Of a DNA stretch of 41,005 bases, positions 21,014 through 24,030 are shown piece after piece. The position numbers and the translations under genes were made by a program. The notes under the pieces were generated by a model, which did no database searches, had not been told where the DNA came from, and saw only the letters and a list, made by a program, of their open reading frames with translations. Within the stretch, counting starts at the first letter, position 1. Each line of letters begins with the position of its first letter. The stretch lies in assembly GCA_011064745.1 (NCBI GenBank), contig JAAKFJ010000001.1, forward strand, positions 1 to 41,005, read 5' to 3'. The stretch is from Candidatus Anoxychlamydiales bacterium (lineage in GTDB: Bacteria > Chlamydiota > Chlamydiia > Chlamydiales > SM23-39).

Positions 21014-21958
21014 ATGAGTGTGTTAAAAAAATCTATCTTAATAGTTTTGTTAATCTTTTGTTTCAAAAGTCTCTCTTTGCAAGCTATCGCTGTTAGCAAG
21101 ATAGAGGGTGATAAAAAAGTAGTGCTTATCACTGGAGCATCTTCAGGTATAGGGCTTTCTACTGCTAAATATTTAGCAAAAAAAGATTACATCGTTTATG
21201 GAGCTGTTAGAAATTTGAGCTCATTAGACACAAATATTAAAAATCTTCACTTTGAAACCTTAGATGTTACAGATACTCAAAGTATTCAAAAAACGGTAAG
21301 TAAAATAATCTCTAAAGAAGGTCGAATCGATGTATTAATCAATAATGCAGGATATGCCCTTGGCGGTTCTTTAGAAACTCTATCAATGGATGATATCAAA
21401 AATCAGATGGATGTAAACTTTTTCGGCGCAATTCGGATGTGCCAAGAAGTCCTGCCACATATGAGAAAAAATCAAAGAGGTCATATTATCAATATCAGTA
21501 GTGAACAGGGTGTATATGGTCTGCCTTATGGAAGTTTATATTCAGCGAGCAAGGCGGCTTTAGAATCTGTATCAGAATCTTTGAGTATTGAACTACTTCC
21601 TTGGAATATCAAAGTGTCAATTGTTGAGCCTGGTCAAGTTGCTACCAACTTTGTATTGAAAATGGGCTCAAAAAAACTAAAGGATAATCCATATCAAAAA
21701 ATATGCGATTTTATGGAATCTTCTCATAATAAAATAACTCAAAAAGAAAAAGCTCTGCCTCCATATCAAAAGCCTGATGAGATAGCTGCATTTTTATATG
21801 ATATTATGAATGTTACAGACCCTCAACTTCGCTATCAAACCAATAAATTATCTAAAGGCATAGTTTCTATGAAATTAAATGATATCTCTGGAGAAGACTA
21901 TTTTAAGAAAATGACAATTATGATTCAAGATTTTCAGAAACGTCTTATCAATAAATAA
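21014..21958 (+). CDS. Classical short-chain dehydrogenase/reductase with a predicted N-terminal signal peptide
   Basis: 'VVLITGASSGIGLSTAKYL' (TGxxxGIG), 'NNAGYA' and catalytic 'YSASKAAL'. The N-terminus 'MSVLKKSILIVLLIFCFKSLSLQA/IA' looks like a Sec signal. Confidence 0.85.
   Translation: MSVLKKSILIVLLIFCFKSLSLQAIAVSKIEGDKKVVLITGASSGIGLSTAKYLAKKDYIVYGAVRNLSSLDTNIKNLHFETLDVTDTQSIQKTVSKIISKEGRIDVLINNAGYALGGSLETLSMDDIKNQMDVNFFGAIRMCQEVLPHMRKNQRGHIINISSEQGVYGLPYGSLYSASKAALESVSESLSIELLPWNIKVSIVEPGQVATNFVLKMGSKKLKDNPYQKICDFMESSHNKITQKEKALPPYQKPDEIAAFLYDIMNVTDPQLRYQTNKLSKGIVSMKLNDISGEDYFKKMTIMIQDFQKRLINK
21691..21958 (+). repeat. Direct-repeat copy A (functional 3' end of the SDR gene); its partner is at 23791-24030
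   Basis: Hand alignment. 21691-21797 aligns gap-free to 23791-23897 (offset exactly 2100) with about 19 mismatches in 107 nt. The remainder aligns after a 29-nt deletion and a 1-nt insertion in copy B, and both copies end at an AAATAA stop. Confidence 0.85.
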
Positions 21959-22018
21959 GATGAAATATTGCTTTCTGATATAAAAATCTCCTTAAGTATT
22001 AGACGATTCAAATAATAT

Positions 22019-23716
22019 TTAGAATCTGACATTACTTAGACCAAATGAACTTGTTAGAGGAAAATCTATTTTTTCCCTAAGTTTATTTGATCTTAAAAAA
22101 AGAGAACCAGCTTCATATAATTTATCAAATGCACAATCTTCATCAATTGGTAAATTAATATTATAGCTATTTTTTATTAAATCATAAATCTCTTCACAGA
22201 TTAAATTTTCAGAAATCATATTACCTTTTGAGATATACTCATCTCTAGTAATAGCATAAGCTTGAGCAACACTTGTCATATACACAACATTCATTTCATG
22301 TAGTAAATCAATTTGCATCAATAGCTTTTGAGCCGACGTTGCACCGTAACTCACGATATCTTCAGATTCATTTCCACTAGTTATATTATAAGTTGAACTA
22401 GGAGTTGCTAGCTGGCATATTTTTTGAGTAAGAGCATTAGCTGTATATTGAACTATCATAAAACCAGATAATAATCCTGCTTGATCTTTGTTGTGTATTA
22501 AATAAATTGGCAATTTGTTTTTATTCCTAGCTGGATTTAATAAATATGAGATTTGACGTTCCATAGTGATAGCTAGCTTTGCGTTTAATATAGCGAGAAT
22601 ATCCGCTGCTGTTGCTAAATATTCCCCATGAAAATTTCCTCCTGAGAATACACCCCATGAATCTTCGTTAAAATCCAATATTCTAGATGATTGAACATCA
22701 GAAGAAATTTCTTCATTTTTAAAAATTAAAGGGTTGTCTGTTATTGCATTCAATTCATTGTTGATAATATCAAATAAAGACATCATTATTTCTAATTTTG
22801 GCCCTAAGATTTGGGGAATACAGCGAATACAATAATCATTTTGAACATCATTAATATCTATAAAAGGAGAGTTAACAAAAAACTTTTTAATTATATTTGC
22901 GATATCTTTTTGTCCTTTTTGATTCCTAACAGTATGAATACTATCGTAAAAAGCAGCATCTACAGCTCCAATTGAATTATAAAAAAGGCTTTGCAGAGCT
23001 AAAAGGTTTTCAAATTCATGAAGATTCTTAATATATGCTATTGATAACATCGAACTCATAAAAGAGGTACCGTTGGTCAAAGCTAAGCCTTCCTTTGCTT
23101 TTGGAATAAAAGGCTTTATTTTTGCGGTTTCTAAGGCTTCTTTGGCTGAAATAATTTTTCCATTAAAATGCACTTTTACATCATCTCCTTGCATAGCTCT
23201 ACCCAATCTTGATAAAAAAGCTAGATCGCCACTAGCTCCTAAAGAACCAGTAGAAGGAATGAGAGGAATAATTTTGGCGTTGATCATATCGAGCAAAGTC
23301 TGCAAACTTTCTTCGGAAAATCCAGAATTGCCTTTTGCTAAAGAATTTGCTCTTAGAATCATTGCACCAAGAACAACGTCATAAGAGAGATTAGAACCAA
23401 TACCAGCATCATGACTTTTAATGATGTTCTCAGAGAGCTTACCAGCATTATCACTTGATACAGTATAATCGCGCAAATCAGCGAACCCAGTGCTAAGGCC
23501 ATAGACTTTGATTTTATTTGATAGTAAATGTTGAATAAAGGCTCTAGTTTCTTTCAACCTTTCGAGAGAATCTTTACCAATAGTTAGAGTCTGATCATTG
23601 TATACCAATTCATAAAAGTCAGAGAGATTTAATTTTTTGCTCTTTGAACATTCAAAAGTACTATTATTTGCAAATAGATAACTTAATAAGAACAAAGAAA
23701 TGATAAATATTTTCAT
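22019..23716 (-). CDS. MIO-dependent aromatic amino acid ammonia-lyase family protein (histidine ammonia-lyase-like) with an N-terminal signal or anchor sequence
   Basis: MIO-forming triad 'GSLGASGDL' (A161-S162-G163, nt 23228-23236). Also 'YGLSTGF', 'LALTNGT', 'QNDYCIRCIPQILG', 'ELNAITDNPL' and 'SGGNFHG'. 'KSHDAGIG' has Ser-His at the substrate-selectivity position, as in HAL. N-terminus 'MKIFIISLFLLSYLFA'. Confidence 0.88.
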   Translation of the reverse strand: MKIFIISLFLLSYLFANNSTFECSKSKKLNLSDFYELVYNDQTLTIGKDSLERLKETRAFIQHLLSNKIKVYGLSTGFADLRDYTVSSDNAGKLSENIIKSHDAGIGSNLSYDVVLGAMILRANSLAKGNSGFSEESLQTLLDMINAKIIPLIPSTGSLGASGDLAFLSRLGRAMQGDDVKVHFNGKIISAKEALETAKIKPFIPKAKEGLALTNGTSFMSSMLSIAYIKNLHEFENLLALQSLFYNSIGAVDAAFYDSIHTVRNQKGQKDIANIIKKFFVNSPFIDINDVQNDYCIRCIPQILGPKLEIMMSLFDIINNELNAITDNPLIFKNEEISSDVQSSRILDFNEDSWGVFSGGNFHGEYLATAADILAILNAKLAITMERQISYLLNPARNKNKLPIYLIHNKDQAGLLSGFMIVQYTANALTQKICQLATPSSTYNITSGNESEDIVSYGATSAQKLLMQIDLLHEMNVVYMTSVAQAYAITRDEYISKGNMISENLICEEIYDLIKNSYNINLPIDEDCAFDKLYEAGSLFLRSNKLREKIDFPLTSSFGLSNVRF

Positions 23717-23790
23717 TATTTTTCCTAAATTTAAATTAGAAAATTAATCTACAGGAATGTTTTTTATTCTACAATTTTAATTGTAGTGAC

Positions 23791-24030
23791 AATACAAAAA
23801 ATATGAGATTTTATGAAATCTACCCAAAATAAAAGAATCGAAAAAGAAAAAGCTTTGCTTCTATATCAAAGGCCTGAAGATATTGCTGCATTTTTATCTT
23901 CGCTATCAAACTAATAAATTATCTAAGGGGAGTAGTTTCTATGAAATTAAATGATGTCTCTGGAGTGGATTATTTCAAGAAAATGACAATGATGATTGAA
24001 TATTTTCAGAAATATCTTATCAACAAATAA
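23791..24030 (+). pseudogene. Decayed fragment of an SDR gene 3' end (direct-repeat copy B)
   Basis: Homologous to 21691-21958 but lacks the first ~680 nt of the gene. It carries a 29-nt deletion and a 1-nt insertion (frame broken) and retains the original stop context 'AACAAATAAGAT'. Confidence 0.8.

Follow-up and report, generated by a model that had tools for sequence, protein, structure and literature searches.

How did a single enzyme gene come to lie between two copies of the 3' end of its neighbor? This question is raised by a locus in an uncultured marine-sediment chlamydia. The window, meaning the whole stretch of DNA that was analyzed, is 41,005 nt of a 'Candidatus Anoxychlamydiales' metagenome-assembled genome (MAG) with a GC content of 30.7%, and all coordinates refer to it. 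An intact short-chain dehydrogenase/reductase (SDR) gene (21014-21958, plus strand) is followed by an ammonia-lyase gene (22019-23716, minus strand), a fragment that repeats the end of the SDR gene, and the lysine-tRNA ligase gene lysS. The end of the intact gene is referred to as copy A and the fragment as copy B. Copy B is probably the resident SDR 3' end, displaced by Campbell-type integration of a circularized fragment made up of about 270 nt of SDR 3' end and the lyase.

Copy A (21695-21964, plus strand) comprises the final 264 nt of the SDR gene and about 6 nt past its stop codon. Copy B (23795-24036, plus strand) is a 5'-truncated remnant. In a gapped blastn the two aligned as a direct repeat in the same orientation bordering the insert, with 213 identities over 277 columns, of which 30 are gap columns, and E = 9e-59. 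The repeat scan gave three direct blocks. These were 103 nt with 84% identity at an offset of 2100 (21695-21797 and 23795-23897), 32 nt with 94% identity at an offset of 2071 (21827-21858 and 23898-23929) and 110 nt with 86% identity at an offset of 2072 (21861-21970 and 23933-24042). The repeat starts at SDR codon 228 and the reading-frame register is conserved. AAATAA followed by GAT closes both copies, and homology is lost approximately 3-6 nt past the stop (21961-21964 and 24033-24036). A diverged duplication of the SDR 3' end had been proposed in an earlier sequence-only reading of this DNA and is real by this alignment, which also recovered the 29-nt deletion (after 23897), the 1-nt insertion (near 23932) and the common AAATAA stop described there for copy B. 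The bounds given there, from 21691 and 23791 to the stop, were right at the stop end and four bases early at the start. Its offset of 2100 stood, while its count of about 19 mismatches in 107 nt became 16 in 103 nt from the true start, because the four extra bases (ATAT against AATA) match at only one position.

Chance similarity in AT-rich DNA, or an artifact of metagenome assembly, would be in keeping with the low GC content and with the origin of the window in a MAG. Both are extremely unlikely. The other local matches all had E values of at least 4e-4, against 9e-59 for a repeat that keeps the reading-frame register, and the same locus was assembled independently as identical stretches of 11-21 kb in ERZ23486227, GCA_004196295.1, SRR8451930 and SRR8452062.

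Copy B is dead because it has no 5' part, has an in-frame TGA (23804-23806) and has two frameshifts. The missing part is the first 681 nt of the SDR gene (nt 1-681), on which the sequence-only reading had already called the copy a dead remnant; the TGA and the frame changes were seen in addition. Two public gene calls lie inside the remnant, one of 33 aa (23813-23914) and one of 29 aa (23941-24030). These are annotation artifacts, in-frame pieces of the dead SDR 3' end.

The segment between the copies is 1,830 nt long (21965-23794) and consists of a 54-nt spacer, the lyase gene and a 78-nt leader. The lyase is the only real gene in it, as ORF prediction and a match to PF00221 confirmed for the earlier claim of exactly one gene, a 4-methylideneimidazole-5-one (MIO) lyase on the opposite strand. 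ORF/Pfam, tRNA and repeat scans of the 1,830-nt insert found no mobility gene, tRNA or terminal inverted repeats. Rfam and tRNA scans of the region gave no matches, and no tRNA was found in the window. A transposon or insertion sequence was rejected as the vehicle; the insert holds no gene other than the lyase, there being no transposase, it lacks terminal inverted repeats, and at 270 nt the duplication is not a short target-site duplication. An integrase-mediated island that replaces the 3' end of its target was also rejected, there being no integrase in the insert and no tRNA in the window.

Close relatives of the window have neither the lyase nor the remnant. Contig L088, from marine sediment, shares 96.7-97.7% identity with the window over 18 kb, its gene order being pspC, SDR, 230 nt, lysS. 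A third strain, S3, was represented by two Logan contigs (L099 and L100) joined by a 30-nt (k-1) overlap and has the order SDR, terminator, a 124-aa gene, lysS. At about 96-97% identity, both strains belong to the same species-level population as the window, and both are free of lyase and remnant. In the related species L008 and L011 the SDR gene lies approximately 410 nt from lysS, again with no lyase. The sequence-only reading had proposed that relatives be checked for an SDR gene beside lysS without the lyase, and L088, L008 and L011 have this arrangement. The L088 SDR 3' end matches copy A rather than copy B, and copy A is about 95% identical to the SDR 3' ends of L088 and S3. The LysS and SDR relatives of the window are 'Candidatus Anoxychlamydiales' MAGs, with SDR orthologues of 69-70% identity at the same locus. 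Two scans of JGI metagenome contigs added nothing to this set: the terminator hairpin described below gave no matches, and a conserved lysS 3' motif gave only unrelated organisms with LysS proteins 45-47% identical.

The same relatives bear on paralogue decay, in which two complete SDR genes lay on either side of the lyase, or had it inserted between them, and the second was shortened by its 5' 681 nt. DNA loss is a tendency of chlamydial genomes, and the 5' edge of copy B could be secondary, so that the copy may once have been longer. This origin is nevertheless quite unlikely. No second SDR fragment was found downstream of the SDR gene in the seven loci scanned (L008, L009, L011, L088, L093, L094 and L095), nor were the two full SDR paralogues that the sequence-only reading had named as the observation that would speak for it. 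A single SDR gene is present in each of L008, L009/L095-98, L011, L088, L093, L094 and S3. Copies A and B are 86% identical to each other and 68-75% identical to any orthologue; any duplication must therefore have been recent and confined to this lineage, and a further deletion would be required.

The position of the ancestral SDR end is indicated by the flanks. The L088 spacer between SDR and lysS could not be aligned with the window except for approximately 40 nt past the stop, which resemble the sequence after copy B. The 45 nt past the copy B stop resemble the L088 SDR downstream sequence (shuffle p 0.007), but the sequence past the copy A stop does not (p 0.87). Copy B therefore lies at the ancestral SDR-end position and the downstream junction of copy A is new. 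Copy B is followed at 24037-24096 by about 35 nt of native SDR downstream flank and then by a bidirectional hairpin (24070-24096) with a 12-bp stem, a 3-nt loop and an A-run and a T-run on either side. The hairpin is common to the convergent lysS (24139-25710, minus strand; NCBIfam lysS, 645 bits), the conserved right-hand neighbor. A promoter/terminator scanner overlooked the hairpin and folding confirmed it, with z-scores of -2.6 and -4.0 on the two strands. Folding of the 60 nt after the intact SDR gene gave no significant structure (z -0.3 and -0.7). Two earlier claims, that the strong terminator follows only the remnant and not the intact gene and that the remnant marks the ancestral SDR end beside lysS, agree with the folding and with the native flank of copy B.

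These observations would be explained as follows. In an Anoxychlamydiales ancestor, a segment carrying an SDR 3' end and the lyase would have integrated by homology where SDR meets lysS. One Campbell-type crossover joining the circularized fragment to the SDR 3' end of the chromosome would leave one complete SDR gene with the lyase next to it, and would push a 5'-truncated SDR 3' copy beyond the insert. The displaced copy would still be joined to its original downstream flank and to the terminator common to lysS. It would then decay neutrally by a stop codon, a 29-nt deletion, a frameshift and approximately 10% substitutions. At a later stage the cassette would have been exchanged between co-existing strains, with crossovers inside SDR (about 21451-21486) and lysS (about 24742).

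A direct duplication of a few hundred bases of homologous sequence, ending at the limit of homology between donor and recipient, is the product of one crossover with a circular molecule. The signature seen here accords better with such an intermediate than with one-sided illegitimate recombination. In Escherichia coli, 56 of 60 recombinants had duplications of 109-950 bp arising from one crossover of a circular molecule (PMC3240628), and the 270-nt duplication falls within this range. Single-crossover integration that duplicates the homology arms has also been seen in Chlamydia trachomatis (PMC8675754). Of the earlier proposal that a segment with a replacement SDR 3' end and the lyase was recombined in, the insertion is upheld by the lyase-free alleles and the flank of copy B. 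The donor origin of copy A is supported indirectly, through three analogous scars at lysS described below.

The age of the event was estimated from the differences between the copies. In the coding part, three-way site patterns among copy A, copy B and L088 gave 22 B-specific sites, four A-specific sites, five L088-specific sites and four sites at which all differ. The B-specific count stayed at 22 when S3 was added. These 22 substitutions were distributed 7/6/9 over codon positions, a distribution compatible with uniformity (p 0.50) but unlike the 2/1/10 seen in functional copies (p 3e-4). Because the B-specific changes are even over codon positions, most of the A-B divergence is neutral decay of a dead fragment, amounting to approximately 0.10 substitutions per site. 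This is more than the per-branch synonymous strain divergence (synonymous divergence, dS, about 0.06 in total), so the event predates the strain split. The insertion is old, which was one of two options in the sequence-only reading (the other being a related but non-identical donor); an even 7/6/9 spread is what neutral decay leaves. Before insertion the copies can have differed by little, roughly a few substitutions. With its evenly spread B-specific changes, the remnant also acts as a small internal clock of the event.

Scars of the same form were found at lysS in other chlamydiae. Contigs L025, L030 and L050 each have an intact lysS, one cargo gene and a 5'-truncated copy of the lysS 3' end. 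The duplicate is 201 nt with 87% identity in L025 (161-4595), 169 nt with 93.5% identity in L030 (9950-13476) and 366 nt with 94% identity in L050 (1003-5087), and the mismatches by codon position are 1/0/22, 0/0/2 and 4/3/12, respectively. The duplicates end between -4 and +22 nt from the stop codon. The cargo of L030 is an F-box/WD40 protein; the other two cargo genes had no Pfam match. Because the copies differ almost only at third codon positions, the pattern indicates donor-derived lysS 3' ends: the copies diverged as working genes in different genomes, one of them arriving with the cargo. Tandem duplication of a unit of 3' end and cargo was rejected for these scars. The genes flanking the remnant are unrelated in L030 and 30% identical in L025, unlike the lysS copies of these contigs, which are 87-93% identical in DNA. 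In a systematic scan such scars were found at three of 79 lysS ends and at none of 59 cysS ends.

The lysS scars also bear on a local origin of the SDR repeat. A template switch, or a similar one-step event, could have copied the lyase segment in after the SDR stop with synthesis resuming 270 nt back, so that no donor homologue was involved and copies A and B were identical at birth. An even codon-position spread is expected if copy B was neutral for its whole history, and the two copies are near-closest relatives of each other when compared with the L008, L009 and L011 orthologues. Such an event leaves unexplained why the duplicate, here as in the three lysS cases, should end at the stop codon, and why the differences in the lysS cases are nearly all synonymous. 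No convincing microhomology was seen by inspection at either junction. Local duplication is thus unlikely, and displacement of the resident end by an incoming one is preferred.

The scarred region lies within a divergent haplotype block. Compared with L088, the block extends from 21451 to 24742 and includes the SDR 3' half, the lyase, the remnant, the terminator and the lysS 3' end. Differences from L088 cluster at 21451-21961 (34 in 511 nt) and 24149-24745 (approximately 50 in 600 nt). Against L088, dS is 0.35 for the SDR 3' half and 0.48 for the 3' 609 nt of lysS (24139-24747), compared to 0.00 for the SDR 5' half, 0.064 for the rest of lysS and 0.03-0.09 for nine neighboring gene segments. 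Difference density and dS rise 5- to 8-fold at both block edges. Maximum chi-square breakpoints were placed after 21486 and 24742, and none of 300 permutations reached the observed value. In the SDR 5' half the window is like L088 and S3 is 10-12% away; over the SDR 3' half S3 is the strain close to the window (about 3%) and L088 stands apart; at the lysS 3' end all three differ. Since the block includes the remnant and the lysS 3' end, the scarred cassette appears to have been swapped whole among strains by later homologous recombination in the flanking genes.

Two further features of the L088 comparison were noted. The stretch at 20900-21450, which abuts the divergent tract, has two differences in approximately 550 nt (dS 0.00, where the background is about 0.06). 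This near-identity suggests a second, very recent exchange that ended at the same breakpoint. High divergence was also present at 14811-15011 and 15711-16400, with up to 35 differences per 200 nt, and the latter patch surrounds two small minus-strand ORFs between bioY and aas.

The visible crossover in SDR raises the matter of homology-facilitated illegitimate recombination (HFIR), in which a linear donor would have been anchored in SDR at its left end and joined at SDR nt 682 at its right end. HFIR shares the general logic of Campbell-type displacement, a crossover in SDR can be seen at about 21451-21486, and a mechanism of this type is documented in transformable bacteria (PMC3240628; PMC5361080). 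True one-sided illegitimate recombination produces deletions with 3-10 bp of microhomology (PMC3240628). Here recipient DNA was duplicated, not deleted, and at most 1-3 matching bases precede 23795. The visible crossover is not the original joint either, because the tract also spans the remnant and lysS. HFIR is accordingly very unlikely as the origin of the scar.

Several points weigh against displacement by a Campbell-type event. Nothing shows directly that copies A and B differed at insertion, and the extra changes of copy B look purely neutral. When L088, S3 and three outgroups were used to ask whether copy A or copy B is native, the branching of copies A and B, L088 and S3 was roughly a trifurcation, with 3 versus 2 informative sites. 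No donor locus in which an SDR gene adjoins the lyase was found, the nearest lyase homologues (58-62% identical) being in unrelated contexts, and none of the three closest adjoins SDR or lysS. The insert has no replication or integration function and the circular intermediate is hypothetical. The 5' edge of copy B could be secondary, trimmed by a later deletion. For the block at 21451-24742 the comparison favors none of the three strains as the recombinant, since they lie at about the same distance from one another and show local mosaicism. Both L088 and S3 derive from metagenome contigs, and chimeric assembly could mimic part of the mosaic. Campbell-type displacement is still regarded as the probable origin. 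The repeat and the pattern of its decay, the alleles without lyase, the native flank of copy B, the divergent block and the analogous scars elsewhere are observed, and a circular intermediate and a donor-derived copy A are the conjectural parts.

The cargo gene encodes 565 aa with a hydrophobic signal-like N-terminal segment and matches the aromatic amino acid lyase family (PF00221, 413 bits). Its GASGDL motif, with the MIO-forming Ala-Ser-Gly triad, and its KSHDAG motif align to solved histidine ammonia-lyases (best 7tqr, E 1e-71). The Ser-His motif is presumably a histidine-type substrate motif. The protein scored under the HutH equivalog cut-offs (TIGR01225, 380 versus 539.15 bits; NF006871, 379.9 versus 524), and hutU and hutI of the urocanate pathway were not found within the 41-kb window. 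The gene is predicted to encode a histidine-ammonia-lyase-like MIO enzyme. The closest homologue is only 62% identical. A 58%-identical homologue in another chlamydial contig (L089, 2426-7692) follows hisS and an amino-acid ABC transporter, a context that would be compatible with a histidine-related role. The composition of the lyase, proposed earlier as a check on its origin, was unremarkable (GC 31.2%, GC3 21%, codon usage typical for the window). As neither measure was an outlier, composition is uninformative on origin. The lyase leader contains, at the right-hand end of the insert and 53-70 nt upstream of the start of the lyase, a perfect palindrome, CTACAATT-TT-AATTGTAG (23769-23786). It occurs once in the window, against a chance expectation of 0.05, and is a putative operator or promoter element of the lyase.

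The intact SDR gene encodes 314 aa with a hydrophobic signal-like N-terminal segment and matches Pfam adh_short (177 bits). The protein is under every NCBIfam cut-off, the top model being KdsR-like (239 versus 400). The core genes of the window are of the typical chlamydial kind: ftsW, murG, a murC-ddl fusion, aas, cysS, lysS and an aro operon. The murC-ddl fusion is a chlamydial feature; the fusion gene (2693-5155) and a gene for an 828-aa ankyrin-repeat protein (7673-10159) are both present in the window. The lowest GC content (20.9%) and the most atypical codon usage among the 27 ORFs compared were those of aroK (27079-27591).

The gene content of this slot varies between lineages. The convergent cysS/lysS junction is a conserved feature of Chlamydiae, aas-cysS and lysS being convergent neighbors in most of 80 chlamydial loci, and in L010 nothing lies between cysS and lysS. 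Each Anoxychlamydiales lineage has a different single gene in the SDR-lysS slot, which holds an AAT-family (PF03417) gene of 478 aa in L009/L095-98 (L009 11757-13193), an F-box gene of 464 aa after SDR in L094 (7610-9004), the 124-aa protein without a Pfam match in S3 and a 70-aa membrane-like ORF in L008 (4887-5099). The slot genes of L009, L094, S3 and L008 are all co-oriented with lysS. A relationship between the 124-aa gene of S3 and the L088 spacer was considered and rejected, the similarity not being significant (E 0.39). The spacer between cysS and SDR also varies. It holds pspC only in the window and L088, pspC and an extra 171-aa ORF in S3 (L099 5485-6000), a 173-aa membrane protein in L009 (14252-14773) and a DUF4258 and HTH pair resembling a toxin-antitoxin module in L008 (6355-7142).

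The locus was compared with known systems. In Campbell-type integration of suicide plasmids, as in E. coli conjugation (PMC3240628) and with plasmid pBVR2 in C. trachomatis (PMC8675754), the insert is flanked by a direct duplication, and integration with a 3'-end segment gives one intact gene and one 5'-truncated copy, both as here. Unlike those experiments, this is a natural event in an uncultured organism, with one cargo gene, no plasmid backbone or replication function left and an old, decayed scar. Rhs, contact-dependent inhibition (CDI) and type VI secretion system (T6SS) effector loci undergo 'sequential displacement', which leaves orphaned 3' fragments (Kirchberger et al., 2017, PMC5361080; citing Jackson et al., 2009). 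There, too, incoming DNA is anchored in a conserved upstream part and the old 3' end is kept downstream as an orphan; repeated events stack cargo, and finished arrays move between strains by homologous recombination. The displaced ends of those loci code for different toxins, and selection retains them together with immunity genes. At the SDR scar, in contrast, new and old 3' ends are equivalent, the lyase has no relation to the anchor gene, and the orphaned copy is left to decay.

A third comparison is with phage 21 and e14 in E. coli icd and with islands in tRNA 3' ends. In these the element supplies a replacement 3' end that leaves the target intact, and the resident 3' end is left as a pseudogene fragment at the far end, with the copies differing mainly at synonymous sites. 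They use a site-specific integrase and a short identical core, unlike the 1,830-nt insert, which has no integrase, tRNA or att-like core. The locus also resembles an integration hotspot in having a fixed slot (SDR/cysS-lysS), cargo that varies between lineages, and flanking core-gene ends with elevated divergence or mosaicism. The chlamydial plasticity zone has been mentioned as a recombination-prone region (PMC8936141). The slot differs from the classical plasticity zone in its locus, in its single-gene cargo and in its occurrence in anaerobic marine-sediment chlamydiae.

The finding is a scar of gene gain through recombination, clear yet ordinary in kind, whose recurrence across chlamydiae is modestly interesting. 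Current views are not overturned, as recombination in Chlamydia and insertion-duplication scars are already well known. The locus provides a base-level example of the gain of a metabolic gene by an uncultured anaerobic marine-sediment chlamydia. That three other chlamydial genomes have scars of this type at lysS hints at a shared route of acquisition. Tentatively, and with rather less confidence than for the SDR locus itself, environmental chlamydiae may gain single cargo genes by a general route without an integrase, in which a neighboring gene's 3' end and one crossover displace the resident 3' end, with the cysS/SDR-lysS junction as a preferred slot. Under such a route the cargo would comprise enzymes and F-box and other effector-like proteins. 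If this is true, 3'-end orphan scars, of which four are now described (one at SDR and three at lysS), would serve as datable records of gene flow in uncultured bacteria that depend on hosts. The presence/absence polymorphism and the mosaic tracts among co-existing strains are evidence that bacteria presumed to be host-dependent still exchange DNA by homologous recombination.

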